DNA from: a virus
Taxonomy: Duplodnaviria; Heunggongvirae; Uroviricota; Caudoviricetes
IMG/VR virus record: IMGVR_UViG_3300033076_001232
Coordinates: 142,435-206,434 of that record
Strand: one strand, 5' to 3'
DNA: 64,000 bases
How positions within the stretch are numbered: the first letter of the stretch is position 1; every line of letters starts with the position of its first letter. Made by a program: the position numbers and the translations under genes. The notes under the pieces were generated by a model, which saw only the letters and a program-made list of their open reading frames with translations, did no database searches and had not been told where the DNA came from. Shown piece by piece: positions 2 to 54,155 of the stretch.

Positions 2-1111
2 AGATGGGATGATCTTCTGGTTTTATTTGGAACTCCATTGCAGGAGGATGCTTTCGGTTTAATTAAAACCGCACTAGAATCAGAAAATGGATTATGTGCA
101 AAGTGGATGCCTAGAAAAGGTCCAATTGCGAACGAGTTAAGAAAGTTTATGAACATGACTCCGAAGGAGTATAGAAAATTGCTTGTTTCTCTAACTAATG
201 TGGTTGAGCAAAACATGTGTTTAAATAAATGGGAAGACATTAATTATTCAAATGTTCCATCGGTCGCTGCTGCAAGATACCAAAATGCTTTCTATAGAAA
301 GGATCAGAAAAGATACGCTGAGTACATTCGTCTTTTAAGCATGCCTAGTGAAGAAAGACCAAATGAAATAAAAATCAATGCTCAAGCGGTTTATCCCTAT
401 GATGTTATTAAATCTCTAAACAGAGGTAATAAGGACGTTGCAACCGAACAATGGAAGGCTCTTCCTAATTATATGGAGGGAAATACTGAAATGATTCTAC
501 CTGTAGTTGATGTTTCAGGTTCTATGATGTCCTCAGTATCTGGTGGATCTTCCTTAACTTGTATGGACGTATCAGTGTCTTTAGGACTTTATATCTCGGA
601 AAGAAATAACGGGCCTTTCCAGGATCACTTTATAACATTTAGTGAGAGCCCTAGTCTACAGAAATTATCGGGTAATCTTTATGATAGATATTGTCAATTA
701 TCCGAATCCGATTGGGGAATGTCAACTAATCTAGAATCTGTATTCAATTTGATTCTAAAGCAAGCTACTAAACACAACATCTCTGAATCTGAAATGCCAT
801 CTAAAATATTGATTCTTTCCGATATGGAGTTCGATGAATGTATAATGGACGGTGAAAGTACATCTGCGATGGAGATGATCAGAAAGAAGTACTCTGATGC
901 TGGATATAAGCTTCCTTCGATTATATTCTGGAATATCCAGAGCAGAAGAGGTGGAAATAATATACCTGTTAGATTTGATGAGATGGGAACTGCTTTAGTT
1001 TCTGGATTTTCTCCTTCGATACTTAAATCAATATTAGCTGGTTCTGAAATAAGCCCGATGGAGATAATGAACCAGACGATAAATTCGGAAAGGTATCAAA
1101 AAGTATCATAA
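2..1111 (+). CDS. vWA-domain protein, 5'-truncated at window edge (MIDAS-like VVDVSGSM; possibly Ro60/TROVE-like or DUF2828-like)
   Basis: Reading frame open from nt 2 to stop at 1109-1111; no in-window start (track begins at TTG 38); DxSGS MIDAS-type motif. Confidence 0.6.
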   Translation, partial: RWDDLLVLFGTPLQEDAFGLIKTALESENGLCAKWMPRKGPIANELRKFMNMTPKEYRKLLVSLTNVVEQNMCLNKWEDINYSNVPSVAAARYQNAFYRKDQKRYAEYIRLLSMPSEERPNEIKINAQAVYPYDVIKSLNRGNKDVATEQWKALPNYMEGNTEMILPVVDVSGSMMSSVSGGSSLTCMDVSVSLGLYISERNNGPFQDHFITFSESPSLQKLSGNLYDRYCQLSESDWGMSTNLESVFNLILKQATKHNISESEMPSKILILSDMEFDECIMDGESTSAMEMIRKKYSDAGYKLPSIIFWNIQSRRGGNNIPVRFDEMGTALVSGFSPSILKSILAGSEISPMEIMNQTINSERYQKVS

Positions 1112-3428: not shown

Positions 3429-3917
3429 GGGCCCGCTTTGGATTTGACAGGCGGAGGTAGTTCTTTGAGATGCAGGCAGTCTTAGATTGGAAAGACTTTA
3501 ATTACCTATCAAACAATAAACGCAAACGTTTACAATTCTGAGGATATCATGAGTATCCCAACTTCACTTACTCGCTCTGTAGTAGCTGAAGAGGTTGAGC
3601 TAGCTGTTGCAGCCTAACCAATTGGCGGCAACTGCCAATTATAAAAGAAAGTTGCAAGCTGGCAAGAAAAAAGGTTCGTAGTATTGCCTATTTGACATTG
3701 AGTGGAACCTTGAGGATTAGTTCAATACCCATTAAGATCGTCACTATCAATGTCAGTGAAACTTGGTTAGTACCGGGGAGTAAACCAGACCGAGCATTAA
3801 GTCTGAAAGAAAAAAGAAACGCACCAAAAGTTTGTTGATGTCGAAAAATCAACTAAGCCTGTGAATGAGTCCAATGGACATTCGATCTGGACGAGGGTTC
3901 GACTCCCTCCGGGTCCA
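3429..3917 (+). ncRNA. ssrA: tmRNA (transfer-messenger RNA, SsrA)
   Basis: 5' acceptor gggcccg pairs with 3' cgggtcc giving G3:U70; 5' ggatttgacagg matches conserved GGAUUCGACGGG; T-arm gaggg-ttcgact-ccctc; internal tag ORF ending gct gtt gca gcc taa (..LAVAA*) with uagua-GCU resume context; helix after stop codon. Confidence 0.85.
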
Positions 3918-3968
3918 CTTTTTTGAAACATTTTAGATAAATACTAATATAAAAATTAAATTATTATT

Positions 3969-4929: not shown

Positions 4930-5295
4930 ATGAGAATAGCAGTAATTGCCCATGACAATAAAAAAGCTGACCTTGTAGCTTTTATTCTTAAAAGATTAGA
5001 TTTTTTTAAAGAGCATGAAATCGTAGCTACTGGAACTACAGGAAAACACATCGAGCATGCCGGCATAGAAGTGAACAAGAAGCTATCTGGTCCTAAGGGT
5101 GGAGATGCACAAATAGCAGCAGAGCTTGTAGATGGTAAAATAGATGGTGTTTTATTTTTCATAGATCCTCTAACATCGCATCCTCACGAGGTTGACGTTC
5201 AGATGCTTTTAAGATTATGTAATGTTTGGAACATTCCAATTGCTACAAATTATTCCACAGCAAAACTTTTAGTTGAAGCGATAACAAAAAAATAA
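4930..5295 (+). CDS. mgsA: Methylglyoxal synthase
   Basis: AHDNKK, ATGTTG, SGPKGGD, DPLTSHPHEVDV, LLRLCNVWNIPIATN align with MgsA catalytic/phosphate-binding motifs. Confidence 0.8.
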   Translation: MRIAVIAHDNKKADLVAFILKRLDFFKEHEIVATGTTGKHIEHAGIEVNKKLSGPKGGDAQIAAELVDGKIDGVLFFIDPLTSHPHEVDVQMLLRLCNVWNIPIATNYSTAKLLVEAITKK

Positions 5296-5302
5296 ATATT
5301 CG

Positions 5303-6055
5303 ATGATAGTATGTTTTATATCGGATACTCACTGTCAGCATTCAAGTAGAAAATTAGAATTTTATCTGGACAGAATTCTGGAGAAATATCCAGATTCTAC
5401 TATAGTCCACTGTGGCGATATTTCAAGTCGGGGTAGATTTACAGAAATAGAAGATTTTCTTTCGTGGTATTCAGACCTAGGGTTTAAAAATAAAATAATG
5501 ATCTCAGGTAATCACGATTTCTTCTTCGATTATGATCGTACACCAATAACTGATATGGGTAGATCTAGACACGGAAATCCGATGTATTCGAAGGAAGATG
5601 TTTACGATTTACTTTCAAAATATCCACAGATAATTTATTTGAATGATTCGGGTATCACCTTGGATGGAATAAACTTTTGGGGTAGCCCAGTAACCCCGTG
5701 GTTCCATGACTGGGCTTTTAATAGGACTGAGGAAACGATAATAGATCATTGGAAAATGATTCCTGATAATACGAACATCCTGATAACTCATGGTCCTCCA
5801 AGAGGTATATTAGATCTTACCTACAATGGATACACCAATGTAGGTTGTATAGAACTAGCTGGAAAAACTTTTGATTTAAAAGAACTTATGGTCCATGCTT
5901 TCGGACATATTCACGAGGCATTTGGTATTGAGACTGTCGATGAGGTAACCTATATAAATGCTTCGTTTCTGAATTTCAACTATCAGCCTTTAAATTCACC
6001 GATAATATTTGACACTGAGAGTAAAAAATCTTATATTTTTTCGATTCAGGATTGA
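5303..6055 (+). CDS. Calcineurin-like metallophosphoesterase
   Basis: GD (CGDISS), GNHD, THGPP, GHIHE metallophosphatase motifs in order. Confidence 0.7.
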   Translation: MIVCFISDTHCQHSSRKLEFYLDRILEKYPDSTIVHCGDISSRGRFTEIEDFLSWYSDLGFKNKIMISGNHDFFFDYDRTPITDMGRSRHGNPMYSKEDVYDLLSKYPQIIYLNDSGITLDGINFWGSPVTPWFHDWAFNRTEETIIDHWKMIPDNTNILITHGPPRGILDLTYNGYTNVGCIELAGKTFDLKELMVHAFGHIHEAFGIETVDEVTYINASFLNFNYQPLNSPIIFDTESKKSYIFSIQD

Positions 6056-6100: not shown

Positions 6101-6877
6101 ATGAGAACATTCCAATACCCTTCCGATGCTATAAAATGGACTAAGGAAAGGTTATCAGATCACGGTTACGTTGTTAAAACAGAGAAATGGCAGGGCATAG
6201 AAGCTCCTGATGACATGTATGAAATAATGAACCATTCTTTTCAAATGGTTATACCGAAATCTATGGAAGAACTTGTTGATGAGGTAAAACCAAATTTACC
6301 TTGGGCTAATGAGCATTTCTTAGAAAGGGTTGGTGGACTTCCGCTCAATCCCCCGCCATCTCATGTTAACTGGCCATTCGCTCAGAAGAATAACGAGCAG
6401 TTTGGTGGCAATGATAGATTTTCCCACACATATCCGGAGAGAATTTGGCCTAAATACGCTTCCGAAGTTCCAAATTCTTCTATGGAAGGTATTAGATTTT
6501 CCTATGGTGATTTTGGTGATGTGCTGGATCTATTAGAGAAGGAGCCTTTTACGAGACAGGCATTCCTCCCGATCTGGTTTCCCGAAGATACCGGGGTAAC
6601 TCACGGAGAAAGAGTACCCTGCACCATTGGTTATCATTTTATGAGAAGAGGTAATTTTTTCCATATCTCCTACTTTATTAGATCTTGTGATTATATAAGA
6701 CACTTTAGAGATGACATATACCTAGCCATCAGAAAGCTAATGTGGATTCTGGATGAGCTTAAAAAAAGAGATCCGGAGAGATGGGGTGATGTTGTTCCGG
6801 GTTATTTTGCAATGCACATAGTTTCGCTTCATTGCTTTAACCGTGAGAAAGGACTTTTAAAACTAAGTAATAAGTAA
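6101..6877 (+). CDS. Divergent thymidylate-synthase-family protein (dCMP/dUMP hydroxymethylase-like)
   Basis: FTRQAFLPIW (cf. DSRRIIxxAWN), catalytic-Cys context VPCTIGYHF, RSCDYIRHFRDDIY (cf. ThyA RSCD / T4 gp42 RSNDVVFGFRNDY) with ThyA-like spacing. Confidence 0.55.
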   Translation: MRTFQYPSDAIKWTKERLSDHGYVVKTEKWQGIEAPDDMYEIMNHSFQMVIPKSMEELVDEVKPNLPWANEHFLERVGGLPLNPPPSHVNWPFAQKNNEQFGGNDRFSHTYPERIWPKYASEVPNSSMEGIRFSYGDFGDVLDLLEKEPFTRQAFLPIWFPEDTGVTHGERVPCTIGYHFMRRGNFFHISYFIRSCDYIRHFRDDIYLAIRKLMWILDELKKRDPERWGDVVPGYFAMHIVSLHCFNREKGLLKLSNK

Positions 6878-14295: not shown

Positions 14296-16233
14296 GTGAA
14301 GGTATTTTTCATAGTCCCGCATTTGTCTACTGGAGGAATGCCGGAATATCTAAAGAATAAGATAGAGAAAATAAAGGACTCCTGTGAAATATGGGTTTTT
14401 GAAAAATCACACGAGAGGACTTATAACACAATCAGGAAAAGAATAGAATCTTTAATAGGACCAGAACGTATAATTACATTGGGTGCTAAGAAAAAGATAC
14501 TATTGGAATCCATAAGATCGATTGGTCCGGATGTTATACATTTCGAAGAACCCTGCGAGCATTTTCTTTCTGACGATATTCTTGAAGAGATATTTTATAG
14601 TGAAAGAAAATATCGTATCCTAGAAACTTTCCATGATTCGTCAATGCAGCCAGAGGAAAAAAAATTCTTGCCTGATAAATTTATAGTGGTTAGTCCATGG
14701 CAGGTTAAGTTGTTGCAGAAGTTAAAAATCCCTATGGAAGTTATTGAACATCAATTAGAGAAAAGGGAATTTAGAAATTCCGATGCAGCCAAGAATAAGC
14801 TAGGGTTAGATACCGGGCATAAACACGTGGTTCAAATTGGAATATTCACGCCAAGAAAAAACCAATCAGAGACAATTAATATAGCCAGATTAACCCCACA
14901 GATACAGTATCACTTCATTGGTACTTTGGCGGATAATTTCAAATGGTACTGGGAACCTTTGCTGAGAGATCTTCCCCCCAACTGTAAAATTTGGGGTGAG
15001 CGTGATGATGTTGATCTTTTTTATGAGGCTGCAGATCTTATCATATTTCCTTCCATAGAAAGATTCAACGATAAGGAAACAAGCCCTCTCGTTTTAAAGG
15101 AAGCTATCTCTTGGAAGACACCTCTTTTGATGAAGAACACCGATGTTTATTCAGACATGTATCAAGAATCAGATACGGTTCATTTCATGGGGGGTTCAAT
15201 AAATTATAATTCTAGAAAAATTTTACAAATATTAGGAGAAATGGAAACAGGAGGACAAAAATTCTCGGCTAGATTTGAAGCCGATGAAAATAAATTAATA
15301 GTGGGTCTTATGGAAAATGAGATAGGCGATGTTACCGTATCTATTAAGGATAGGGATTCTAACACCTGCATATTTTCATTTTCTCTAGATGCACAGTATG
15401 CGGGATCCGAATGGTGGTGTATCCCGATACCTAAGCCATACTTTGATTTTATGGGTGATAGAAACTTTAGTGGTTTCTTAGTCGAGTTTTACAAGTCATT
15501 GAACGAGGATCCAATCGAATCTTTGATTGTAGACCTAGATAAAAAACCCATCATGAAAAAAATGATAAACTCCGGTGGTCCTATTAACTTCGATCCTATT
15601 TTCGTAAATTACACACAGTTCTTTGTTGATGGAATTTATAACCAATTCTTTGCAGGCACCCGAGTGACAACTGCCATCGACATAGGAGCTAATGTTGGTC
15701 TTTTTACCGAATGGGTACTTGATAGATTCGGAAGCGACACGAAAGTAATTTCGGTTGAGCCAAATAGCAAAGCATGCGAATCATTCAGTTACATGCACTC
15801 AGGAAAAGAGAATGTTATTTTAGAAAAGCTTGCAGTCACTTCCACTGATAACGATGTGATCAAACTTTTAGTAAATCCGGAGAATACCCTAATATCTAGT
15901 GTAGAAGGTACTGGAGATGGCTACTCAGATTCAGAGGAGATCGGTACCATATCTCTCCTTAGTTTATTGGAAAAGCATGGTCTCTCTGAGGTTGATCTTC
16001 TTAAGGTTGACGTGGAGGGAGCAGAATATGATATATTTAGCGTTGTTTCACCGGAGGATCTCAGAAGGTTTAAGCACATGCTAATTGAATTTCATAACAA
16101 TAGAGGCAGAGCATCCGATTTGATATCAAAGATAATCTCTGCTGGTTTTGACGTGGATCTTAGAGACGACGATACAAGGTATCAAGTGGATCAGAACAAC
16201 GATAGAGGAACCATATTTGCAACAAGAAAATGA
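14296..16233 (+). CDS. Bifunctional glycosyltransferase (GT-B fold) / FkbM-family methyltransferase
   Basis: GTG start; GT-B C-terminal half motifs (EAADLIIFPS..E..PLVLKEA); C-terminal TAIDIGANVGLFTEWVL FkbM-like SAM motif. Confidence 0.6.
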   Translation: MKVFFIVPHLSTGGMPEYLKNKIEKIKDSCEIWVFEKSHERTYNTIRKRIESLIGPERIITLGAKKKILLESIRSIGPDVIHFEEPCEHFLSDDILEEIFYSERKYRILETFHDSSMQPEEKKFLPDKFIVVSPWQVKLLQKLKIPMEVIEHQLEKREFRNSDAAKNKLGLDTGHKHVVQIGIFTPRKNQSETINIARLTPQIQYHFIGTLADNFKWYWEPLLRDLPPNCKIWGERDDVDLFYEAADLIIFPSIERFNDKETSPLVLKEAISWKTPLLMKNTDVYSDMYQESDTVHFMGGSINYNSRKILQILGEMETGGQKFSARFEADENKLIVGLMENEIGDVTVSIKDRDSNTCIFSFSLDAQYAGSEWWCIPIPKPYFDFMGDRNFSGFLVEFYKSLNEDPIESLIVDLDKKPIMKKMINSGGPINFDPIFVNYTQFFVDGIYNQFFAGTRVTTAIDIGANVGLFTEWVLDRFGSDTKVISVEPNSKACESFSYMHSGKENVILEKLAVTSTDNDVIKLLVNPENTLISSVEGTGDGYSDSEEIGTISLLSLLEKHGLSEVDLLKVDVEGAEYDIFSVVSPEDLRRFKHMLIEFHNNRGRASDLISKIISAGFDVDLRDDDTRYQVDQNNDRGTIFATRK

Positions 16234-18542
16234 GAATAGCACAGATTACCCCTGGTGTAATTCCGATCCCACCAAATGGATGGGGTGCAGTTGAAAAAAT
16301 AATATGGGAATACACTAAAGTACTTAGATCATTAGGACATCATGTAGAGATATTATATTCAAGTGAGGTCAATCCGGACGAATGGGACATAGTACATGTT
16401 CATATGGCAAATCTTGCCCTGGATCTAAAGTCAAGAGGAATACCTTACATCTTCTCACATCATGATCACCATGCCTATCACTTTGGTAAAGAATCTCACA
16501 CTTACAAAGAAAACTTGGAAGCTATCCAGGGATCAATTGTGAGCTTCGTACATGCTAAATATTTAGTTGATTATTTTGGAGGCGGGGATAAATTAAGGTA
16601 CTTGGGTCACGGGGTTAATATCTGGGACTATGAGTTTAATGATAAATCCAGAAGCATTAAAGAGGGAAACATCTCATTGCTAATGTTAGCTAATAACGGC
16701 CTGGGCGGTGATAAGATGTACGATAGAAAGGGATTCAAATACGGAATAGAATCCGCAAGAAGATTGAATCTACCAATAACGATAATATGTCCATCCGATA
16801 ATTCCGATTTGATAGAATCAGTAGATCCCTACGAGAAGCTAACTCTCAAATATAATCTGGGCTATTTGGACACCCTGGAGGAAATAAGAAATCACCACAT
16901 TTTTTTGAATCCTTCGATGTTAGAGGCTGGACACCCAAACCTCACTGTTACTGAGATGTTGTCTCTGGGAATTCCAGTGATCGGTACGTGTGAGTCGGAA
17001 ATCCCAGGATTGGTGAGATTGCCACTAGCATCGGATCTTAGTATAGATTTAGATAATCTATGTGAATCTATAGAGAAAGCAATTAGAACTTATCCGCAGT
17101 TAGTTTTAGAATGTAAGAGAATCAGGGAATCACTTTCATGGGAGGTGGTTGTATCTAAGATGCTAATGGAGTACTCGTCATTCGCTAAGATCGATCAAAA
17201 GGAGCTTATTTTAAGCTCGTATAAGACTCCAATTAGAAAAGACATATTAACAGATGTTCGGGGGTTCGATTGCTCGTTTAATGGCTCTATTTACGCTTAC
17301 AAATCAGCCAATACACCTTCGATAACTTCAGTTTCATTTAAAGATAGAGGAACTAACCAGATAATATATAAATCCAAGTTTTCTAAATCGTCTAAATCCT
17401 GGATTATGTATGGCGATTCACCTAATAGATTCATAGACTGGGAGGTTGTTTTTAAGGTTGGAGACATTGAGGTATTTAAAAAATCGATGGATCTAAGGGA
17501 CAATCATGTTCTTGTTATTGGCGAGATTGGATCTGATAAATCCGAAATGTTATCGGATTTTGAGAAAACTACCGGATGTATACTATCATTAAGAGATTCT
17601 GAAATTAGTGGATTTTTCAAATCCGATGGATCCGATGATCTATACTATAGAAAGCTAAACCCAGAACAAATCTTAGATTTTTTCTCCCCCAAGGATAAGA
17701 TCACTAGCCGAACATTAATTACTCTGGAAACTGGATCTCTGGGTGACAATATAGCTTTCATTCCCTATGCTAATGAATATGGTAAGAAGATAGGTGAAAA
17801 AGTCGATGTTATCATGCCACACAAGGATCTATTTACCGATGTATATGAATGGGTAAACTTTGTAGATTCAGATGGATTGCATCCTTATACTAACTATGTA
17901 GCCATTGATTACATTTTCGAAAAACCCCTACAAGAGGGTGCGGCATACCAGCTAGGATTAGATTATCAAGAGATAAGACCGGAAATAAAACAGAGACAAT
18001 CCTTAGATATACCTTCGGGCAAATATGTGTGTTTCTCCATGCACAGCACAGCACAGGCTAAGCATTGGAATTATGACAAAGGATGGTCAAAACTATGTAA
18101 TGAATTGAAGTTAATGGGTATTACTCCAGTTTGCATAGATCGATACGAATCATTTGGTACAGAGGACAATTGGAATCCTATCCCTAAAAATTGTGTCAAT
18201 ATGACTGGGGGTGACCTAACAAGAATGATAGAAATAATTAGTGGGTGTGAATACTTTATAGGACTTTCTAGCGGTTTATCTTGGTTGGCACATGCACTAG
18301 GAAAGAGAGTGGTGATGATATCGGGGGTCACTTCTCCAGAAAATGAATTCACAATTGATTGCCTAAGAATACACGATTCCAGCGTTTGTAATTCGTGTTT
18401 TAATAAGTGTAAGGATTACGAGTTCGATCCCGGAGATTGGATGTGGTGTCCTGAATTTAGGGGAACCTCTAGACAGTTCGAATGTACTAAAGGTATATCT
18501 GCACATAGAATAATATCAGAAATAAAGAAAATCGGGTGGTAA
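16230..18542 (+). CDS. Multidomain glycosyltransferase: N-terminal GT4-like, C-terminal GT9 (heptosyltransferase-like)
   Basis: GWGAVEKI..HVH N-terminal GT4 features; C-terminal ETGSLGDNIAF and GGDLTRMIEIISGCEYFIGLSSGLSWLAHALG GT9 motifs. Confidence 0.6.
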   Translation: MRIAQITPGVIPIPPNGWGAVEKIIWEYTKVLRSLGHHVEILYSSEVNPDEWDIVHVHMANLALDLKSRGIPYIFSHHDHHAYHFGKESHTYKENLEAIQGSIVSFVHAKYLVDYFGGGDKLRYLGHGVNIWDYEFNDKSRSIKEGNISLLMLANNGLGGDKMYDRKGFKYGIESARRLNLPITIICPSDNSDLIESVDPYEKLTLKYNLGYLDTLEEIRNHHIFLNPSMLEAGHPNLTVTEMLSLGIPVIGTCESEIPGLVRLPLASDLSIDLDNLCESIEKAIRTYPQLVLECKRIRESLSWEVVVSKMLMEYSSFAKIDQKELILSSYKTPIRKDILTDVRGFDCSFNGSIYAYKSANTPSITSVSFKDRGTNQIIYKSKFSKSSKSWIMYGDSPNRFIDWEVVFKVGDIEVFKKSMDLRDNHVLVIGEIGSDKSEMLSDFEKTTGCILSLRDSEISGFFKSDGSDDLYYRKLNPEQILDFFSPKDKITSRTLITLETGSLGDNIAFIPYANEYGKKIGEKVDVIMPHKDLFTDVYEWVNFVDSDGLHPYTNYVAIDYIFEKPLQEGAAYQLGLDYQEIRPEIKQRQSLDIPSGKYVCFSMHSTAQAKHWNYDKGWSKLCNELKLMGITPVCIDRYESFGTEDNWNPIPKNCVNMTGGDLTRMIEIISGCEYFIGLSSGLSWLAHALGKRVVMISGVTSPENEFTIDCLRIHDSSVCNSCFNKCKDYEFDPGDWMWCPEFRGTSRQFECTKGISAHRIISEIKKIGW

Positions 18543-21425: not shown

Positions 21426-22391
21426 ATGGCAGAAATACTAAATCTGGTAAATCCGAAAGATAGCTTATCCTTTAAATATGAGATAAGCAGGTTCCCTGAC
21501 GGCCAGCAATCATTAAGACTGATTGAGGATGGTTACAACACATTCAATTCACTAAAGAATGCGGCGATCAAAATAAAGTCAAGACTAAACAATTTCCAGG
21601 ATTTGGAAATTATCATTTGCGCAACACAAGCTCTTAGGGAGGTTGGAGTGAATGATATCAGTCTTTACATTCCTTATTGTGTTGGTGCTAGAAGCGACCG
21701 AAAATTTTCAGAGGGTGGAATCAATTATGTTAAGACGGTGATTGCACCTATTATCAATTCACAGGGCTACTCGAGTGTCACAATACTTGATCCACATTCT
21801 GATGTGCTTGAGGCTTGCATTAACAATTTCAAAAAGATAAACAATTTCAATTTAGTCAATTTTTCTTTGAAAGAAATCCTACTTGAAGATTGGAGAAAAA
21901 CTTCGGACGATATTGGTTTCGAAGGGTGGTACAAATACGACTGGCTAAAGAACCCGGACATTGTCCTAGTTTCACCCGATGCAGGTGCTTATAAGAAAAT
22001 TTTTGATGTTGCAGAAAATTTCAGAATTAAGAGCATAGCAACAGCGGTCAAAGTTCGAGATTTGGAAACTGGAAAGATCCTGAGAACGGAGGTTCCAAAT
22101 TTACCCATTAGCACAACAGGAAAAGAATTTAGGTATGTAATTATCGATGACATTTGTGATGGCGGTAGAACATTCATTGAATTGGCAAAAGCGATCAAAG
22201 CTAGTCGCCCAACTGCTGAGATCTATTTAGTGGTCACTCATGGAATCTTCAGTGCTGGGTATGCTGAATTAGGAAAATATTTTAATGGAATCTATTGTAC
22301 AAACTCGGTAAAGGACATCGTACACGATCCAGAAGACACCGACCTCGAAAGAGAAATGAAGGAAAAAGTAAAACAATTAAACGTATTCTAA
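21426..22391 (+). CDS. Ribose-phosphate pyrophosphokinase-family protein (Prs-like; possibly ADPR-pyrophosphate synthase type)
   Basis: FPDGQ, IPYCVGARSDRK (cf. IPYFGYARQDRR), ILDPHS, VSPDAGA, VIIDDICDGGRTF PRPP-binding loop. Confidence 0.7.
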   Translation: MAEILNLVNPKDSLSFKYEISRFPDGQQSLRLIEDGYNTFNSLKNAAIKIKSRLNNFQDLEIIICATQALREVGVNDISLYIPYCVGARSDRKFSEGGINYVKTVIAPIINSQGYSSVTILDPHSDVLEACINNFKKINNFNLVNFSLKEILLEDWRKTSDDIGFEGWYKYDWLKNPDIVLVSPDAGAYKKIFDVAENFRIKSIATAVKVRDLETGKILRTEVPNLPISTTGKEFRYVIIDDICDGGRTFIELAKAIKASRPTAEIYLVVTHGIFSAGYAELGKYFNGIYCTNSVKDIVHDPEDTDLEREMKEKVKQLNVF

Positions 22392-23149: not shown

Positions 23150-23694
23150 TGGAACAAACAGCAATAGAAACAGGATACAACGAGATTGAAGGAGATTTAA
23201 TCGAGTTTGCAAAACAGAGGATGTTTGATGTGATAGCACATGGATGCAATTGCATGAGCACGATGGGAGCTGGTATTGCTCCGCAAATGGCAAAAGCTTT
23301 CGGATGCGACCGATTCGAAATGGAAATGTGGGGGTCAACAATTGAAAAGCTCGGTAACATAGATTACCAGACTTTCGTAATTGGAGAATTTGCAATCTGG
23401 AACCTGGAAGATGCCAAGAATAATCGAAATGAACACGAACTAACTGTGGTTAATGCCTACACCCAATATAATTACGGTAGAAATCACGCAGATGGTCACG
23501 CAGCACCTTTTGATTATGATGCTTTCACTATTTGTGTCAGAAAGATGAACGAGGTGTTTAGAGGAAAGCATATTGGACTTCCGATGATAGGTGCAGGACT
23601 AGGAGGAGGTAATTGGAATAGAATCAAAGAGATCATTCGTTACGGACTCAGAGACTGTAAAATAACAGTTGTAATCTATAAACCTAAACAATAA
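23149..23694 (+). CDS. Macro-domain (ADP-ribose binding/processing) protein
   Basis: VIAHGCNCMSTMGAGIA and IGAGLGGGNW glycine-rich loops typical of macro domains. Confidence 0.55.
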   Translation: MEQTAIETGYNEIEGDLIEFAKQRMFDVIAHGCNCMSTMGAGIAPQMAKAFGCDRFEMEMWGSTIEKLGNIDYQTFVIGEFAIWNLEDAKNNRNEHELTVVNAYTQYNYGRNHADGHAAPFDYDAFTICVRKMNEVFRGKHIGLPMIGAGLGGGNWNRIKEIIRYGLRDCKITVVIYKPKQ

Positions 23695-24209
23695 TGAAAG
23701 TAATCAAACCTACAACCGAAAACCAATCAGTAAGATCCAACGATGTCTCGGTATTTTTAGCTGGCTCGATCGAAATGGGATCTGCTGAGGATTGGCAATC
23801 TAAACTCGAAGCCAAGTTAAAGGAAACTTTAGACCACGAGGATATTGTCCTATTCAACCCTCGGAGGGAATCCTGGGATTCCTCATGGGAGCAAAGAGAA
23901 ACAAATCCTGAATTCAATTACCAGGTTAATTGGGAATTATCAGCATTAGAAATGGCTGATATTATATTCTTGAATTTCTTACCCGACACAAAGTCTCCGA
24001 TATCTCTATTGGAGCTTGGAAAGTTTGCAAATAGCGGAAGAATGATTGTTTGCTGCCCTGATGGATTCTGTAGAAAAGGAAACGTCGAGATTGTCTGCAG
24101 TAGATATAACGTTCCTTTTTACGGATCTCTAGACGAAGCAATAGGATCATTGGTTACACGAATACACAAAACAAGAGTTTCTAAAAATTCTTTTTTTCTT
24201 TTACCCTAA
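23694..24209 (+). CDS. Nucleoside 2-deoxyribosyltransferase / Rcl-family protein
   Basis: VFLAGSIE N-terminal motif and SLLELGKFANSGRMIV catalytic-Glu motif. Confidence 0.55.
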   Translation: MKVIKPTTENQSVRSNDVSVFLAGSIEMGSAEDWQSKLEAKLKETLDHEDIVLFNPRRESWDSSWEQRETNPEFNYQVNWELSALEMADIIFLNFLPDTKSPISLLELGKFANSGRMIVCCPDGFCRKGNVEIVCSRYNVPFYGSLDEAIGSLVTRIHKTRVSKNSFFLLP

Positions 24210-29448: not shown

Positions 29449-31020
29449 ATGAAAGGAATAAACCCAGCCCTTCTAACCGACGGTTATAAAACAGGGCACC
29501 ATCAGCAATACCCGGAGGGAACAACTCTAGTGTATTCTAACTTTACCCCAAGAAGTAACAAGTATGCACCTAAGGGATGCGATCATGTTGTTTCTTTTGG
29601 TCAGCAACTTATCATGAAGCAGATTCACGAGAGCTTCCAAAAAGATTTCTTCGATCAGCCTAAAGATGAGGTGTGCTCGGAAATTAAGAGAGAGCTTTCT
29701 CTTTATCTAGGAGTCGATTACGATGTTAGTCACTTCGAAGCCCTTCACGATCTTGGATATTTACCTATTAAGGTTAAAGCAATCAAAGAGGGAACTTTAG
29801 TGCCAATCAAGGTTCCTGTCTTGACTATCTATAATACGGATCCCAACTTTTACTGGGTAACCAACTATTTGGAAACACTAATCTCAAATCTTCTTTGGAA
29901 GCCAATGACTTCCGCAACAATTGCTTACCAATACAAGAGAGTTCTTACCGATTGGGCTCTTAAAACCGACAAGGAAAACAAAACATTTGTTCAGTGGCAA
30001 GGTCACGATTTCTCTATGAGAGGTATGGATTCAGTGGATGCTGTAATTTCTTCCGGTCTTGGACACCTAACATCTTTTACTGGAACAGATTCCCTTCCTG
30101 CAATTTACGGAGCTCGTAAGTATTACGGAGCGGAAGGATTTGTCGCAGCGTCAGTGCCAGCAACAGAACACTCGGTAATGTGTGCTGGCGGGAAAGAGGA
30201 TGAGATTGAGACATTCCGAAGACTGATTAAGACTTACCCTGCTGGTATCTTGTCAGTAGTATCTGATACTTGGGATTTGTGGAAAGTGTGTACGGAGCAT
30301 GTGGTTACTTTGAAAGAAGAGATTTTGGCTCGTGATGGTAAGTTGGTTATTCGTCCTGATAGTGGTGACCCGGTTGATATCCTTTGCGGTACAGAAGATT
30401 ATACAAAATCTAAATTACCTTATGATGAGGTTAAAGATGTAGAAGTTATGCACCCTAGCCAAAAAGGTGTAATTGAACTTCTTTGGGATGTATTTGGAGG
30501 AACTGTTAACGAACAAGGTTACAAAGTACTTGATCCACATATCGGAGCAATCTATGGCGATAGCATTACTATCGATCGTGCTGAGCAAATCTGCAGCAGA
30601 TTAGCTTCAAAGGGATTTGCATCAACAAACGTAGTGCTTGGGGTAGGATCTTTCACTTACCAGTACAACACCCGCGATACATTTGGTTTTGCAATGAAGG
30701 CAACTTATGTTGAGGTTAAGGTTCCTAAATATGGTGATTTTGCGGACCAAGGGTTGAATACCGAAATTGAAGGTAGAGAAATCTTCAAAGATCCAATCAC
30801 CGATGATGGAACGAAGAAATCTGCAACTGGCTTACTAAGCGTAGTTAGCCGTCCAGGTGAAGGTTTAACCCTAGTTGATAAGTGCGACTGGAAACATGAA
30901 AATGTCGGAGCATTGGAAACAATCTACCACGACGGAAAATCTAGCTCCGAGATCACTCTTTCTGAAATTAGAAACAATCTTGAATTTTCTTTGATTAAAG
31001 AGAGAGAAATTATTTTTTAA
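29449..31020 (+). CDS. Nicotinamide phosphoribosyltransferase-family protein (NAMPT/NadV-like; possibly Namat-type)
   Basis: VPATEHSVM, SFTGTDS, IRPDSGDPV motifs conserved with NAMPT. Confidence 0.7.
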   Translation: MKGINPALLTDGYKTGHHQQYPEGTTLVYSNFTPRSNKYAPKGCDHVVSFGQQLIMKQIHESFQKDFFDQPKDEVCSEIKRELSLYLGVDYDVSHFEALHDLGYLPIKVKAIKEGTLVPIKVPVLTIYNTDPNFYWVTNYLETLISNLLWKPMTSATIAYQYKRVLTDWALKTDKENKTFVQWQGHDFSMRGMDSVDAVISSGLGHLTSFTGTDSLPAIYGARKYYGAEGFVAASVPATEHSVMCAGGKEDEIETFRRLIKTYPAGILSVVSDTWDLWKVCTEHVVTLKEEILARDGKLVIRPDSGDPVDILCGTEDYTKSKLPYDEVKDVEVMHPSQKGVIELLWDVFGGTVNEQGYKVLDPHIGAIYGDSITIDRAEQICSRLASKGFASTNVVLGVGSFTYQYNTRDTFGFAMKATYVEVKVPKYGDFADQGLNTEIEGREIFKDPITDDGTKKSATGLLSVVSRPGEGLTLVDKCDWKHENVGALETIYHDGKSSSEITLSEIRNNLEFSLIKEREIIF

Positions 31021-37383: not shown

Positions 37384-37932
37384 ATGGAAACAAAAATTGA
37401 TCCTAGAGAGATTGAAAAAATCGAAAAATTAACAGGGGGTAAAATCGGAACTCATACCTTTGGTCCAAACCAAGAACACACTTTGGAGAATTCCTTTCTA
37501 TCTCAGGATGGAACATATATTGGAGACTTCGAAAGAGCTCAATGGTACGTTGAACAAAAATTGATGGTCGACGAGGAATACCCACATGGAGTTGCTGCCG
37601 TTATTAAGGACGAAACCTACGGAACAGAAATTCCGGAAATAGAAGGCATGTATGGTTACACTCACAGAGGGGGTCAAATGTTTAAAATCGGTGATCGATT
37701 ATTTGACGAAAGTTACAAACCACAGAAGGAGGACTATCCCGAGGATGAATGGTCGAAGTATGAGGAGAGCTTTAAAAAATCTTACGATGAGGCAGACGAC
37801 CTAAATAAAAAATGGATGGATAACGACGGAATCTCTTATGTTATCCCATTTAAAATGAGAGGGAGAAAGAATATCGAAACTATGAGGGAGGCTTTCGAAG
37901 CAGCTAGAAACATGTCAAAGTATTTAAGTTAA
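37384..37932 (+). CDS. Hypothetical protein
   Basis: ORF track. Confidence 0.45.
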   Translation: METKIDPREIEKIEKLTGGKIGTHTFGPNQEHTLENSFLSQDGTYIGDFERAQWYVEQKLMVDEEYPHGVAAVIKDETYGTEIPEIEGMYGYTHRGGQMFKIGDRLFDESYKPQKEDYPEDEWSKYEESFKKSYDEADDLNKKWMDNDGISYVIPFKMRGRKNIETMREAFEAARNMSKYLS

Positions 37933-39393: not shown

Positions 39394-39939
39394 ATGACTT
39401 GTATAGTTGGATATTTAGATAAGAAAAACAAGAAAGCATTTGTTGGCGGGGATTCTGCGGGAGTCGCAGGATTAGATATCACCATTCGTAAGGATGTAAA
39501 GGTCTTTAAGGTTGATGATTTTGTCATAGGATGCACTTCTTCCTTCCGCATGATACAACTATTGAGATTTTCATTTAGTCCTCCTAAACTTAAAAAAAAG
39601 GATGTCTACGAGTATATGTGCACCGACTTTATAGATGCTGTAAGAGAATGCTTTAAAAAGGGTGGATTTTTACAGAAGTATACCGAAGGTGACGAGAAGG
39701 GTGGAACATTTATAGTAGCTTACAAGGACCGATTGTTTGAAATAGACGATGATTTTCAGGTTGGTGAAAATCTGAACGGCGTTTCTGCAGTTGGCTGCGG
39801 TAAGAACTATGCTCTTGGCGCTCTTCATGCTCTTCGGGAAAAGGAGGGGGATCCAGAAAAGATAGTATTAGCTGCATTGTCAGCAGCAGAGTTTTATTCA
39901 GGAGGTGTCTCATCTCCTTTTATAATAGAAAAAACATGA
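39394..39939 (+). CDS. HslV/proteasome-beta-like Ntn-hydrolase peptidase
   Basis: N-terminal M-TCIVG (Thr nucleophile after Met removal), GGDSAG, KDVKVFKVDDFVIG, AVGCGKNYALGALHAL align with HslV TTIVS..GDGQAT..KKVRRLYNDKVIAG..IGSGG. Confidence 0.55.
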   Translation: MTCIVGYLDKKNKKAFVGGDSAGVAGLDITIRKDVKVFKVDDFVIGCTSSFRMIQLLRFSFSPPKLKKKDVYEYMCTDFIDAVRECFKKGGFLQKYTEGDEKGGTFIVAYKDRLFEIDDDFQVGENLNGVSAVGCGKNYALGALHALREKEGDPEKIVLAALSAAEFYSGGVSSPFIIEKT

Positions 39940-40280
39940 GTAAATTAGTTTACATAGCATCTCCATATTCTAGTCCGGATGATAGAGTAAGACATGAGAA
40001 TTATTTGATTGTTACCAAGATAGCAGCGGATCTTGTTTCGCGTGGTCAGGTTGCAATCTCACCGATCACTTATGGTCACATGTTATTAGAGCATGCGTCG
40101 ATGCCAACCGACTGGGAATTCTGGGAGAACTTTTGTATCACACTCCTACGGAAGTGCGAGAAAATGATAGTCTGCAACAATATGGTCGGTTGGGATAAAT
40201 CCCGAGGTGTTGCCGCAGAGATTGAGTTCGCAAAACAGAACGGGATCGAAATAGAATATCTGATTAAACCAAAAGAATAA
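39936..40280 (+). CDS. Nucleoside 2-deoxyribosyltransferase-like (DUF1937-type) protein
   Basis: VYIASPYS and SRGVAAEIEFAKQNGIEI catalytic-Glu motif. Confidence 0.5.
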   Translation: MSKLVYIASPYSSPDDRVRHENYLIVTKIAADLVSRGQVAISPITYGHMLLEHASMPTDWEFWENFCITLLRKCEKMIVCNNMVGWDKSRGVAAEIEFAKQNGIEIEYLIKPKE

Positions 40281-43653: not shown

Positions 43654-44016
43654 ATGAGAAAAATTAAGATTCTTTACGATTTTCTTAGATTGTGGATTAT
43701 GTGGGGAGATAGGAAGGAAGCATGGCAAGACGCAAATTCTATAAACGATCCTAATTTCCAGAAAGAACTGGAAGAGATATCCAATAAGTTAGATCAGGTT
43801 CTCTTAGAAAAGAATCCAAATTTTAAAGAAGTCTGTCTTGAGATATCTCAAAGACTTTCCAATTTACCTTACGATAATGGAGACATATCAGACATCGGTA
43901 ACGAGATAGGTATTGTTCTGGGTAAACATATCCAGGATGGGTCTTTCGGATGGGAAAGAGGAGATTTAAATTCTGGACTAAATCATGGTATATCAATAGC
44001 TAATGGAACACACTAA
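43654..44016 (+). CDS. Hypothetical protein
   Basis: ORF track. Confidence 0.4.
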   Translation: MRKIKILYDFLRLWIMWGDRKEAWQDANSINDPNFQKELEEISNKLDQVLLEKNPNFKEVCLEISQRLSNLPYDNGDISDIGNEIGIVLGKHIQDGSFGWERGDLNSGLNHGISIANGTH

Positions 44017-45163
44017 GAATATGAATAACATAGACAAGCAGTACTTAGATCTACTCCAGGATATATTGGACAATGGAGTAGAAAAAAGAGATAGAACCGG
44101 AACGGGGACTATCTCAGTTTTTGGTAGACAGATAAGACATAAGATGTCGGAAGGATTTCCTTTGCTTACGACGAAGAAGATGTACTGGAAAGGAATCGTA
44201 ACCGAGCTACTTTGGTTTTTAAGAGGTGATACCAATATTAAATTCTTGGTCGATAACAACTGCCACATCTGGGACGGCGACGCATACAAGAACTATCAGA
44301 GCAAACAAAAGAAACCTAAGGTCGGAGACTGGGAAAATTACATAGATTGCTACTGTGGACATACCGATACATGTTCTTGCGGAATTATGTCAAAGACAGA
44401 ATTTATAGAAAAAATTAAATCAAGCAAAGTGTTCTCAGATAAATGGGGAGAGCTCGGTCCTATTTATGGAAAGCAGTGGAGATCATTCGGTCCATCTGAC
44501 GAATACTATAATGGAACAGAGTGGGTTTATATAAGCCCAATAGATCAGATAGCTAAAGCTATAGAAATGATAAAGGAGGATCCAGATTCTAGAAGAATTA
44601 TGGTTACCGCATGGAATCCCTCAGATTTGCCTAAATCTGTACTCCCACCTTGCCATTATGGATTTCAATTTTATACAAGAGAGTTGAGCGATGAAGAAAG
44701 AGTAAAGTTATATGAACAAAAAACAAACACAGATACTTCATTCTTTCCAGTACTTACAGAAACCTTAGCTTTCCATAATATACCAACCAGAGCAATCTCT
44801 TTAATGTATAATGCCAGAAGTCAAGATGTTCCTCTAGGAACACCGTTTAATATAGCTTCATATGCTCTTCTTCTTTCGATAATTGCAGAAATAACTAACA
44901 CTGTACCGGAAGAAGTTATAGCTAACATGGGGGATTGTCACATCTATCTAAATCAGATAGATGGCATAAAGGAACAGATAAGCAGGTCTCCAAAAGAGTT
45001 GCCTCAATTGCAGATCAACAAGGAACCATTTGACAATTATCTTTTCGCCTCACATTCAGAAAAAACGTCAATCAATCATTTAATTAACGATTTGAAGCCG
45101 GAACACTTTAATATTTCGGGATATGATCCACATCCAACGATAAAGATTCCATTGAGTAATTAA
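44003..45163 (+). CDS. thyA: Thymidylate synthase (ThyA) with two internal insertions
   Basis: DRTGTGT, LLWFLRGDTN, DLGPIYGKQWR, DPDSRRIMVTAWN, PPCHYGFQFY, PFNIASYALL, GDCHIYLNQ, YDPHP all in ThyA order; ~45-aa Cys-rich insert and ~30-aa insert. Confidence 0.85.
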   Translation: MEHTKNMNNIDKQYLDLLQDILDNGVEKRDRTGTGTISVFGRQIRHKMSEGFPLLTTKKMYWKGIVTELLWFLRGDTNIKFLVDNNCHIWDGDAYKNYQSKQKKPKVGDWENYIDCYCGHTDTCSCGIMSKTEFIEKIKSSKVFSDKWGELGPIYGKQWRSFGPSDEYYNGTEWVYISPIDQIAKAIEMIKEDPDSRRIMVTAWNPSDLPKSVLPPCHYGFQFYTRELSDEERVKLYEQKTNTDTSFFPVLTETLAFHNIPTRAISLMYNARSQDVPLGTPFNIASYALLLSIIAEITNTVPEEVIANMGDCHIYLNQIDGIKEQISRSPKELPQLQINKEPFDNYLFASHSEKTSINHLINDLKPEHFNISGYDPHPTIKIPLSN

Positions 45164-45180: not shown

Positions 45181-45669
45181 ATGCCAGTAATGATAAAGGA
45201 TTCACGTTTCTATAATAACGGATCATCAAATAGAGCCTTTGGAACTTCCGGAATGGCTGGAATACCAGGAATTCCCGGGGTTTCTGGATTTGTCTCAATC
45301 ACGGAAGGTCTCCCAGTTTCATATGAAGAAATTCCCAGAACTGCCAAATTAGAAAGCAGATTTGTAGATTTGTACGACGATTACGATTTCTCACTATATT
45401 CCGCCGAATTAAAGAATCAATCCAGTATAATTGATGTGGTAAGCAGGGTGTCTTCTGAAGTAAGCGATTCAAATCCAGTAGGGAGCAAAGGAAATGTCGG
45501 AAAGGTAAAAAATGAAGTTGTCGGTATTAACACACAGATCTCTAAGAAATCTAAAAATCTTAAAGGAAGTAGTATTAAGAAAGAAAAAAATCAAATTTTA
45601 AAAACTGTTCTGCAGAACTTTTTCCCAGTAAGCGCATTTACTTCTATTTACGAAAAAATTAGAAGATGA
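45181..45669 (+). CDS. Hypothetical protein
   Basis: ORF track. Confidence 0.45.
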   Translation: MPVMIKDSRFYNNGSSNRAFGTSGMAGIPGIPGVSGFVSITEGLPVSYEEIPRTAKLESRFVDLYDDYDFSLYSAELKNQSSIIDVVSRVSSEVSDSNPVGSKGNVGKVKNEVVGINTQISKKSKNLKGSSIKKEKNQILKTVLQNFFPVSAFTSIYEKIRR

Positions 45670-48115: not shown

Positions 48116-48118
48116 TTT

Positions 48119-48334: not shown

Positions 48335-48355
48335 TACCGGATCTAAACTTTTAAA

Positions 48356-48565: not shown

Positions 48566-48575
48566 AAAGTATAAA

Positions 48576-49445: not shown

Positions 49446-49447
49446 TT

Positions 49448-50301: not shown

Positions 50302-50302
50302 G

Positions 50303-54106: not shown

Positions 54107-54155
54107 AATTTATTTATTTTTTTTCCTGCTAGGGTTTTTCAAACCCCCGTTTTAT

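Follow-up and report, generated by a model that had tools for sequence, protein, structure and literature searches.

The window, a 64 kb stretch of viral DNA, contains two genes of the thymidylate synthase (TS) family (Table 1). The first encodes a divergent TS-like protein whose start, length and coordinates agree with those given in an earlier note on this DNA. The second encodes ThyA, which the note had called canonical, and its Pfam match and residues confirm this. Two insertions account for the length of ThyA. With ThyA present, the TS-like gene is unlikely to be a redundant dTMP synthase, and a non-redundant function is favoured.

Table 1. Positions of the genes discussed and the basis of their assignment
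Position	Strand	Product	Basis or remark
4930..5295	+	Methylglyoxal-synthase homolog	-2 neighbour, conserved in ~24 loci
5303..6055	+	Calcineurin-like metallophosphoesterase	Directly upstream of the TS-like ORF
6101..6877	+	Divergent TS-fold enzyme, 258 aa, ATG start; dCMP C5 modification predicted	Key residues assigned by homology: C174 nucleophile; R152' and R194/S195 phosphate/deoxyribose; D205 cytosine discriminator; D197, Y111, H244
14296-16233		GT1 + FkbM methyltransferase	Domain calls
16230-18542		GT9-like protein	Domain call
44003..45163	+	Canonical ThyA, 386 aa, dUMP to dTMP	PF00303 4e-94; N177, L143, R21, E58, RR and C-terminal tail present

The metallophosphoesterase is the commonest -1 neighbour of the TS-like gene in the jumbo-phage lineage, occurring at 33 of ~92 loci. 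It may be a nucleotide-pool enzyme, such as a nucleotide phosphatase, which is only a guess. It was also considered as the counterpart of the 'hypothetical' neighbour found in small phages, and this was rejected, the two proteins being unrelated. The methylglyoxal-synthase homolog is context only and has no known tie to a TS-like enzyme.

Fold and active-site register of the TS-like protein

The TS-fold core claimed for the ORF was recovered far above chance level. The protein scores 13 bits against Pfam PF00303 (E 0.056), below the cut-off of 24.3, and matches PHROG 160 'thymidylate synthase' at 2e-24. A family profile of 111 sequences retrieved solved TS structures from the PDB at 5e-6, with the L. 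casei TS N229D mutant as the best-scoring entry. The AF2 model of the protein has a pLDDT of 92.6 and a pTM of 0.91. Foldseek with this model matched TS-family structures at a probability of 1.0, and MilA, a phage dCMP hydroxylase, ThyA and T4 dCH were retrieved at 5e-14 to 1e-10 (TM ~0.7). The top match was MilA (5e-14, TMq 0.70), and the dCMP hydroxylase AfhB, also among the top matches, gave the highest target-normalised TM (0.76). The hallmarks of the TS superfamily, an alpha/beta fold whose central sheet bears the catalytic Cys and an R-S-x-D motif, are all present. The gene is genuinely related to thymidylate synthase, though only distantly, and the window contains a second, highly divergent TS-family gene alongside canonical ThyA, as the earlier note had proposed.

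That note had named an out-of-register alignment as one refuter of its reading. All the motifs that it quoted were found, and all lie in the register of the ThyA active site. R152 of FTRQAFLPIW corresponds to E. coli (Ec) R126, C174 of VPCTIGYHF to C146, and R194, S195 and D197 of RSCD to R166, S167 and D169, respectively. D205 of FRDDIY corresponds to N177 of E. coli and D179 of T4 gp42. The likeness of FRDDIY to T4 gp42 also holds, with the Asp of RSxD and D205 eight residues apart, the same spacing as in T4 (RSNDVVFGFRNDY).

D205 is Asp in all 111 family members and R152 is kept in all 111, while C174, R194, S195 (110 of 111) and D197 are invariant across the family. Despite an identity of only ~40%, the family has 36 invariant positions, including the Cys nucleophile and the equivalents of R166, S167, D169, Y94 and H207, which indicates selection for catalysis. 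This conservation speaks against an inactive or regulatory TS-fold protein, such as a nucleotide-binding subunit or an inhibitor of the host TS. Such a protein would explain why the canonical catalytic and phosphate-binding residues E58, R21 and R127 are missing, but it is highly improbable.

The residue three positions ahead of the catalytic Cys (Cys-3, Ec position 143) is R171, an Arg in 111 of 111 members. R171 and H201 (Ec position 173) are invariant and clade-specific, and their alignment to the E. coli 6-A shell predicts that both adjoin C5. At Cys-4, an acidic residue (E170) is constant in the jumbo-phage subgroup alone. The S/T-x-Y position is occupied by H109-T110-Y111, with the family pattern H-T/S-Y-P-E-R. 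The C-terminal TS lid, a tail that closes over the folate in ThyA, is absent; only 14 residues follow H244 (family median 11), whereas 57 come after the equivalent His in the E. coli enzyme and 63 in the 5mdCMP synthase of PaMx74. Of the four Arg that bind phosphate in ThyA (R21, R126', R127' and R166), R127 is represented by Gln153, and Leu143 is lost in the clade. R21 is absent, and the alignment sets Asn65 of this subgroup, and Asp of the other subgroups, against the folate-activating Glu (Ec E58, T4 E60), in an N-terminal region where residue mapping is uncertain (R21, E58 and W83 shift among MAFFT runs). Equivalents of several folate contacts are kept, namely W91 (W80), D197 (D169) and a basic residue at 203. 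The family also has the T4-like traits FRND, T at position 147 and SLH(V/C)(Y/F).

Predicted substrate and proposed reaction

Almost every pyrimidine hypermodification known from phage DNA begins with a TS homolog, and at present three or four residues serve to predict what such a homolog makes. At Ec position 177, Asn selects uracil and Asp selects cytosine (Liu & Santi, Graves et al., summarised in PMC13326640, PMC8670742, PMC6400193). Deoxyribonucleotide enzymes have Ser/Arg where MilA has A176/K133' (PMC5175136). The combination expected of a T4-type dCMP hydroxymethylase, Asp177 with Ser167/Arg126' (PMC6400193, PMC5175136), is found here as D205, S195 and R152. By these published residue rules, dCMP is the predicted substrate, and dUMP is disfavoured. 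Throughout the family, Asp occupies the position that sets base specificity, and in this it agrees with T4 dCMP hydroxymethylase. As the active site reads as deoxycytidylate-specific, the gene probably makes a modified cytosine nucleotide for phage DNA. The invariant Asp discriminator, the N229D mutant as best profile match and the lack of a lid together make a modified-cytosine role the most reasonable reading.

We tentatively place first, at somewhat less than an even chance, a tail-less dCMP one-carbon transferase whose most likely product is 5-hydroxymethyl-dCMP. This member of the TS superfamily would act on the free nucleotide dCMP, presumably as a homodimer like all TS-fold enzymes, with R152 supplied across the interface. 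By homology, C174 occupies the site of the nucleophile that attacks the pyrimidine at C6, R194/S195 and R152' occupy the sites that hold the 5'-phosphate and deoxyribose, and D205 lies at the Asn/Asp site that selects between uracil and cytosine. The one-carbon unit of methylene-tetrahydrofolate would be transferred to C5 of dCMP, as suggested by the retention of W91, D197 and the T4-like helix start F202-R203-D204-D205; R177 of T4 binds the folate glutamate tail. The exocyclic methylene would most likely be quenched by water to give 5-hydroxymethyl-dCMP, since there is no C-terminal lid to close the active site during hydride transfer. T4 dCH likewise lacks the tail, and there water attack takes the place of hydride transfer (PMC6400193). 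Water may be activated by residues other than those of T4, with E170/R171 ahead of the Cys, H109/E113/R114 around Y111, and H201 as candidates. After phosphorylation, the modified nucleotide would be built into DNA by the phage polymerase, and dTMP would come from the separate canonical ThyA.

The earlier description of the protein as hydroxymethylase-like is borne out in part, by the Asp discriminator and the absence of a lid. The published hydroxymethylase signature is an Asp or Glu three residues ahead of the catalytic Cys together with Ser/Thr-x-Tyr, and the D145N mutant of T4 dCH, which lacks the Cys-3 acid, is inactive (PMC6400193). This T4-type signature is absent from the clade, and the name 'hydroxymethylase' is not established because of the invariant Arg at Cys-3 and the H-T/S-Y-P-E-R pattern. 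A product other than the hydroxymethyl form is possible, either 5-methyl-dCMP or a new product.

Distribution of the clade and its gene neighbourhoods

A search for near-identical DNA among 50,697 phage records gave no match for the region. The clade itself is annotated as 'thymidylate synthase' in >130 cultured phages, including Muddy, at ~45% identity. The gene is no peculiarity of one phage; small siphophages carry members of this large clade, which routinely receive that annotation. Cultured carriers include Muddy, FF47, Zuko, Serbin, PMBT14 and the C. perfringens phage CPAS-15. The family is virus-restricted, with only 15 matches in 185,579 species genomes, all on MAG contigs.

In relatives, the gene lies in nucleotide-pool cassettes of two forms. 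The first consists of a P-loop kinase, dUTPase_2/MazG, the TS-like gene, a dCMP deaminase and Pol A, and the second of NrdJ, a P-loop kinase-like gene, the TS-like gene, a dUTPase and Pol B. At one locus (L084), a trimeric dUTPase adjoins the TS-like gene. These settings, like the restriction of the family to viruses, favour the reading as a dCMP-modifying enzyme. The 64 kb window yielded neither a dCTPase nor a dNMP kinase nor a dCMP deaminase, which counts against that reading. A six-frame HMM search of the window for P-loop kinase, dUTPase_2, MazG, deaminase and gp47-like proteins was empty at E<=1, and Pfam detected no cassette partners on ~70 window ORFs. In Muddy, the TS-like gene (gp46) has as its partner another TS-fold gene, a cryptic one (gp47), and no other TS was found beside the clade gene. 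The gp47-like partner shares with the TS-like family a fold visible only by structure prediction, the hhalign probability of sequence homology being just 0.1-0.2%. DHFR was detected neither in the window nor in Muddy.

The small-phage cassette can be read as a dTTP pathway, in which a dCMP deaminase and a dUTPase supply dUMP to a TS followed by thymidylate kinase. Together with the uniform annotation, the dUTPase at L084 and the lack of another TS in Muddy, this would fit a second, divergent thymidylate synthase (EC 2.1.1.45) converting dUMP to dTMP. Such a function is nevertheless quite improbable. Asp is invariant at the uracil/cytosine discriminator in place of the Asn177 of ThyA, and the lid, R21/R127 and Leu143 are all missing. 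In addition, the protein falls below the Pfam TS threshold, and a fully canonical ThyA is already present in the window.

The earlier note had also drawn attention to large glycosyltransferases 8 kb downstream. They are present as domain calls, but their distribution does not support a link to the TS-like gene. As pathway partners they were rejected, since of ~92 related loci only 16 have GT1+FkbM and only 2 have GT9. On a 373 kb contig, a relative with 75% identity has the same local gene order but neither glycosyltransferase gene. In the window, unrelated RNase HII and GMP-reductase-like genes separate them from the TS-like ORF.

If a modified cytosine is made, the DNA of many sequenced phages, including Muddy, is modified in a way so far overlooked, which would affect phage engineering, sensitivity to restriction and CRISPR, and artefacts in sequencing. 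No measurements of DNA composition were found in the literature for carriers of the clade (Muddy, GTE2, Serbin, PMBT14, CPAS-15, Zuko or any actinobacteriophage of the group).

Comparison with characterised enzymes

Read from its residues, the clade matches the signature of no enzyme class with a known product. It breaks the residue rules, in that it reads as dCMP-specific, has no methylase, hydroxymethylase or hydroxylase pattern, and is called 'thymidylate synthase' in databases.

The dUMP hydroxymethylase of SPO1/SP82G shares the unusual motifs Y-x-E-R and T-R-Q-A with the TS-like protein. Both have an acid-Arg pair ahead of the catalytic Cys (D-R-P-C in SP82G, E-R-V-P-C here), and the SP82G enzyme scores 26 bits against the family profile, a likeness that favours the one-carbon transferase reading. 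Unlike the TS-like protein, which has D205 and R171, the SPO1 type has the uracil-specific Asn177 and an acid exactly at Cys-3. It also has R21, E58 and a long C-terminal extension (159 residues past H207). MilA, a CMP hydroxymethylase (5JNH/5B6D), resembles the protein in its Asp cytosine discriminator as well as in structure. It differs in Ala/Lys at S167/R126', which accounts for its ribonucleotide preference, and in an Asp at Cys-3; the TS-like protein has S195, R152 and Arg at these positions.

A 5-methyl-dCMP synthase like that of Xp12/PaMx74, with the same covalent chemistry finished by hydride transfer and leading to 5mC-substituted DNA, is possible but not likely. PaMx74 gp52 is the best characterised scorer against the family profile (27 bits). 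It shares with the clade Asp177, a non-acidic Cys-3 and G-x-R before the Cys. Asp177 with a non-acidic Cys-3 is the pattern that others use to predict 5mdC. Both gp52 and the relatives of the TS-like gene adjoin a dCMP-deaminase-family gene. The cassette of small phages (MazG/dUTPase_2, TS-like, deaminase, Pol A) fits a neighbourhood of deaminase, Asp177-TS, PRA-PH and Pol A that is reported to be strongly enriched on modified-cytosine metagenomic contigs, which also counts for the one-carbon transferase placed first. Five of the seven deaminase-linked Asp177 TS homologs tested from such contigs made 5-methyl-dCMP, although they may not belong to this clade (preprint 10.1101/2024.12.05.627091). 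In small phages, some of the 5mdCTP would be converted to dTTP through the adjacent deaminase, consistent with the lack of another TS in Muddy. In the window, however, canonical ThyA is present and no deaminase lies nearby, so this dTTP-bypass logic does not apply. Moreover, gp52 is a full-length TS with a lid (63 residues past H207), R21, E58, RR and an adjacent DHFR, all of which are absent in the clade, and loss of the lid abolishes the TS reductive step (established TS enzymology; PMC6400193). The Xp12/PaMx74 enzyme was rejected as a clade member, since gp52 is a TS of canonical architecture.

The 5-hydroxy-dCMP synthases (RB69 gp48, DLP3 gp80 and HY126 AfhB; 9IQU/9IQC) are similar in small size, the 14-residue tail past H207, F at 209, T at 147 and D at 177. 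These likenesses, seen in RB69 gp48, and the structural match of AfhB are consistent with a different chemistry at C5 of dCMP. This would be either flavin-dependent 5-hydroxylation of the RB69/DLP3/HY126 type or the capture of the exocyclic methylene by some nucleophile that is neither water nor hydride, placed by R171/H201. By either route, the resulting base would be one that has yet to be reported in this clade. The folate-activating Glu is not conserved, and the two invariant clade-specific residues, charged or polar, map by alignment into the C5 6-A shell. This chemistry is unlikely, however, as D169N, the sole published diagnostic of 5-hydroxy-dCMP synthases (PMC13326640), which accompanies a Glu at Cys-3, contrasts with the invariant D197 and R171 of the family. 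Several folate-contact equivalents (W91, D197, basic 203) are kept, and no positive sign of an alternative cofactor or nucleophile was seen.

It is doubtful, though conceivable, that the clade forms a distinct functional class of TS-fold enzymes making a C5-modified deoxycytidylate undescribed for these phages. Its features would be the missing tail, Asp177, invariant Arg at Cys-3, invariant His at Ec 173 and H-T-Y-P-E-R, and in its chemistry the exocyclic methylene would possibly be trapped by neither water nor hydride but a further nucleophile. If so, these Bacteroidota jumbo phages would carry an unrecognised DNA base, as would >130 cultured siphophages, including the therapeutic phage Muddy.

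For the tail-less one-carbon transferase placed first here, a close known system is T4 gp42 deoxycytidylate hydroxymethylase (dCH, EC 2.1.2.8; 1B5E/6A9A), an enzyme type that yields 5-hydroxymethyl-dCMP and THF rather than DHF. Both proteins have the TS fold, a Cys followed by Thr (PCT here, MCT in T4), the eight-residue spacing from RSxD to Asp, an F-R-N/D-D opening of helix J and the SLH motif. Both lack the C-terminal TS lid, and in both cases a canonical TS is encoded in the same genome. In contrast, Cys-3 is Asp in T4 and Arg in the clade, S-N-Y-G in T4 is replaced by H-T-Y-P-E-R, and Ec position 173 is Gly in T4 and His in the clade. The TS-like protein further differs in having Gln for the second Arg of RR, no Lys/Arg at R21 and no conserved equivalent of E60, and T4 gp42 scores just 14 bits against the family profile.

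Fold and distribution of the TS-like protein

The TS-like open reading frame described in the earlier note was recovered with the same coordinates, strand and length. Its product is barely recognizable as a thymidylate synthase (TS) with single-sequence methods: its PF00303 score of 13 bits (E 0.056) falls short of the 24.3-bit Pfam cut-off, and a phmmer search of PDB sequences reaches only E about 0.1. Stronger methods establish beyond doubt that it is a TS-fold protein. It matches PHROG 160 'thymidylate synthase' at 2e-24, and A2, a family profile built on 111 sequences, matches solved TS structures at 5e-6. The AlphaFold2 model (pLDDT 92.6, pTM 0.91) retrieves TS-superfamily structures with Foldseek (E 5e-14 to 1e-10, TM about 0.7), and a viral structure library gave the same outcome. 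Alignments against ThyA and T4 gp42, the T4 deoxycytidylate hydroxymethylase (dCH), place the previously noticed motifs in the right register. R152 (in FTRQ) corresponds to E. coli R126, C174 (in VPC) to C146, R194-S195-x-D197 to R166-S167-x-D169, and D205 (in FRDDIY) to E. coli N177 and T4 gp42 D179. Spacing is identical between T4 gp42 (RSNDVVFGFRNDY...SLHVY) and this protein (RSCDYIRHFRDDIY...SLHCF).

The protein is a member of a wide family, not a peculiarity of one phage. By tblastn, 138 cultured-phage records carry a member at 24-46% identity, including Mycobacterium phages Muddy and FF47, 74 Gordonia phages, Streptomyces phage Zuko, Serratia phage Serbin, Pseudomonas phage PMBT14, and Brevundimonas and Clostridium perfringens phages. 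Metagenomic copies number in the thousands (3,869 clusters at 90% identity, E<=1e-5; 174 in a stricter set at 50% identity, E<=1e-30). The 185,579 species-representative genomes of bacteria and archaea contain only 15 copies, all on short MAG contigs and none in an isolate genome; the family is therefore effectively virus-restricted. Members of about 390-640 aa (P0299, P0315-P0320 and others) match the profile in two stretches, which suggests insertions (perhaps an intein or homing endonuclease) or fusions inside the gene.

The phage and its gene neighborhoods

The window belongs to a jumbo phage. Contigs of up to 250 kb carry a protein identical to the TS-like one, viral contigs of 290-430 kb carry relatives with 75% identity, and no near-identical DNA to the region was found among 50,697 phage records. 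RNase HII and a GMP-reductase-like protein are also encoded. The PRPP-synthetase-like protein, NAMPT and the cytidylyltransferase-like protein suggest a set for NAD+ salvage or reconstitution; together with the Tad6 homolog, they likely serve anti-defense functions. The cluster at 47159-50848 (+) is possibly RNA-repair or tRNA-related. MilB-type N-glycosidases, of the same clan as the PF15891 protein, partner with MilA, a CMP hydroxymethylase, in mildiomycin biosynthesis; no linkage of the two genes of this clan to the TS-like gene was seen in the window. Strand and GC skew flip at about 52 kb, and the minus-strand block at 53498-62727 encodes secreted or host-like proteins. Because this block includes a T9SS sorting domain and one 69%-identical copy of the TS-like protein was binned with a Saprospirales MAG, the host is probably among the Bacteroidota.

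Features of the window and of related loci carrying a TS-like gene (L numbers)
Feature	Position	Strand	Remarks
DUF2828 + DUF7788 (TROVE/vWA, Ro-like) protein	38-1111	+	listed start near window edge; full-length L007 counterpart, 476 aa
tmRNA	3429-3920	+	ARAGORN tag peptide EEVELAVAA*; Rfam RF00023 full length, 87.3 bits (gathering 47)
Methylglyoxal synthase (MGS) homolog, genuine	4930-5295	+	matches solved MGS structures at E 3e-33; motifs of the catalytic region conserved
TS-like gene	6101-6877	+	ATG start, 258 aa
GT1+FkbM and GT9-like glycosyltransferase-domain genes	14296-18542		
PRPP-synthetase-like	21426-22391	+	
Nucleoside 2-deoxyribosyltransferase-like	23694-24209	+	PF15891, 3e-32
NAMPT	29449-31020	+	
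Tad6 (Thoeris inhibitor) homolog	37384-37932	+	
DUF1937/DUF7768 protein	39936-40280	+	same clan as PF15891 protein
Canonical ThyA	44003-45163	+	PF00303 4e-94; 386 aa, not about 264, owing to two large insertions of which one is Cys-rich (CYCGHTDTCSCG)
ORF after ThyA	45181-45669		no Pfam match; no DHFR after ThyA
Cytidylyltransferase-like, possible NMNAT	45666-46091	+	
AAA ATPase	47159-48115	+	
Thg1-like tRNA-His guanylyltransferase	48576-49445	+	
Two HAD_SAK_2 'Swiss Army Knife RNA repair' HAD domains	49400-50083, 50258-50848	+	
C-type lectin/LamG protein	55066-56745	-	
Ser/Thr/Gly/Asn-rich protein	56742-58427	-	561 aa
Cohesin + T9SS Por_Secre_tail protein	59927-61849	-	
PG-binding + GH19 lysin	61897-62727	-	
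TS-like gene with flanks	L084:9483-11197		P-loop kinase-like (173 aa), trimeric dUTPase; NrdJ, Pol B, GroES/GroEL nearby
gp47-like genes	L001:5045-5938 (Muddy gp47); L002:3889-4950; L003:4192-5001; L004:4208-4957		

Across jumbo-phage loci the neighborhood is syntenic yet variable. The window has methylglyoxal synthase, metallophosphoesterase and the TS-like gene in this order; the metallophosphoesterase occurs in 33 of about 92 loci and the methylglyoxal synthase, two genes upstream, in 24, while GMP-reductase-like or endonuclease genes lie upstream elsewhere. The glycosyltransferases that the earlier note had connected with the TS-like gene are real, but they are not conserved partners (GT1+FkbM in 16 of about 92 loci, GT9 in 2), and a 373 kb relative lacks both genes. 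In a sub-lineage at 60% identity (L083-L092) with the same active-site signature, the TS-like gene has a P-loop kinase-like gene on one side and a trimeric dUTPase on the other, adjoined by NrdJ and Pol B; the kinase-like protein of L084 had no Pfam or PHROG match.

Small siphophages that infect Actinobacteria, Proteobacteria or Firmicutes share a strikingly conserved cassette, in which a P-loop 'thymidylate kinase' is followed by dUTPase_2 or MazG, a protein of 250-350 aa, the TS-like gene and Pol A, often with a dCMP-deaminase-family gene just ahead of Pol A. HMM and Pfam searches found none of these partners in the 64-kb window, about a quarter of the genome. The 250-350 aa protein, always encoded ahead of the TS-like gene, is of the Muddy gp47 type (PHROGs 13667 and 34294). 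All significant PDB matches of its AF2 model (pLDDT 92.7) belong to the TS superfamily (MilA 6e-7, the phage dCMP hydroxylase AfhB 9e-7, T4 dCH, ThyA), which makes Muddy gp47 a second, cryptic TS-fold protein; profile-profile comparison detected no TS relationship for gp47-like proteins. Cys119 and a Ser137-Arg138 pair are invariant in them. These small siphophages therefore carry tandem TS-fold genes, whose products might form a heterodimer or catalyze consecutive steps. A six-frame HMM search found no gp47-like partner in the window.

Active site and predicted substrate

The active site was compared with those of six enzymes: E. coli ThyA, the window ThyA, PaMx74 gp52 (5-methyl-dCMP synthase type), the SP82G dUMP hydroxymethylase (SPO1 type), T4 gp42, and RB69 gp48 (5-hydroxy-dCMP synthase), with residue rules for class assignment taken from published papers. 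At position 177, Asn selects uracil and Asp cytosine (PMC13326640, PMC8670742, PMC6400193). D205 is invariant in the family, and the top PDB match of the A2 profile is the L. casei N229D mutant. Ser167 with Arg126' selects deoxyribose, whereas Ala with Lys selects ribose (PMC5175136, on MilA); the protein has S195 and R152. From D205, S195 and R152, dCMP is therefore predicted as the substrate. The family keeps 36 invariant positions despite a sequence identity of only about 40%. Of the 12 E. coli ThyA residues no farther than 6 A from C5, six are changed (A142E, L143R, H147T, Q165I, G173H, N177D), and R171 and H201 are invariant and clade-specific. A signature that includes E170-R171, N65 and D204 is fixed in the jumbo-phage subgroup (about 90 loci, 56-100% identity); position 170 varies among small-phage relatives.

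Nearly all 138 cultured-phage records are annotated 'thymidylate synthase', and the cassette is ambiguous at face value because a plain dTTP pathway could have the same genes. A plain second TS is nevertheless improbable: the discriminator is Asp, and the same genome encodes a canonical ThyA, as had been noted earlier. An NEB preprint, however, reports strong enrichment of the neighborhood of deaminase, Asp177-TS, PRA-PH and Pol A on modified-cytosine metagenomic contigs, with five of seven such TS homologs, which may or may not belong to this clade, yielding 5-methyl-dCMP in vivo (10.1101/2024.12.05.627091). Xp12 and PaMx74, named as examples in that preprint, were excluded from the clade by comparison.

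Comparison with characterized enzymes

A C-terminal lid of 57-63 residues, R21, E58 and an RR pair are common to E. coli ThyA and PaMx74 gp52, whose gene adjoins a DHFR gene. Unlike these methyl-forming enzymes, the family lacks the lid (median 11 residues past H244), R21 and Leu143 and has Gln at R127; a 5-methyl-dCMP synthase, the type to which the in vivo results would point, is a less likely alternative, though the strongest rival. Hydroxymethylases carry Asp/Glu at Cys-3 and Ser/Thr-x-Tyr, and the T4 gp42 D145N mutant is dead (PMC6400193), whereas in this family Cys-3 is always Arg171 and the Tyr motif reads H-T/S-Y-P-E-R. The diagnostic of 5-hydroxy-dCMP synthases is D169N (PMC13326640), whereas the equivalent D197 is invariant here. 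By these residue comparisons, the clade lacks the defining feature of each characterized class, yet keeps the catalytic core. The family occurs widely and already bears a name in databases; in the literature searched, its active site differs from those of all characterized classes, and no measurement of its product was found.

By homology, the TS fold, nucleophile, phosphate and deoxyribose clamps and Asp discriminator are kept, without the lid; an inactive protein is highly improbable. C174 would activate dCMP, and methylene-THF would donate the one-carbon unit, the equivalents of W80, D169 and T4-R177 being kept. Without a lid, the methylene intermediate would most likely be hydrated, by a residue set unlike that of T4. 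5-Hydroxymethyl-dCMP formed in this way is our tentative proposal for the product. Another chemistry, with which the clade-specific R171 and H201 could be compatible, is unlikely. The broader reading, that the enzyme supplies phage DNA with a non-canonical deoxycytidylate, is probable and considerably likelier than any one product. Of the earlier interpretation, a T4-like, cytosine-directed enzyme stands through the Asp discriminator; hydroxymethylase activity is not established, with Arg at Cys-3, and the glycosyltransferase link is unsupported. With the SPO1-type dUMP hydroxymethylase the family has Y-x-E-R, T-R-Q-A and an acid-Arg pair ahead of Cys in common; with T4 dCH, F-R-N/D-D and PCT; and with RB69 gp48, small size, F209 and a short tail.
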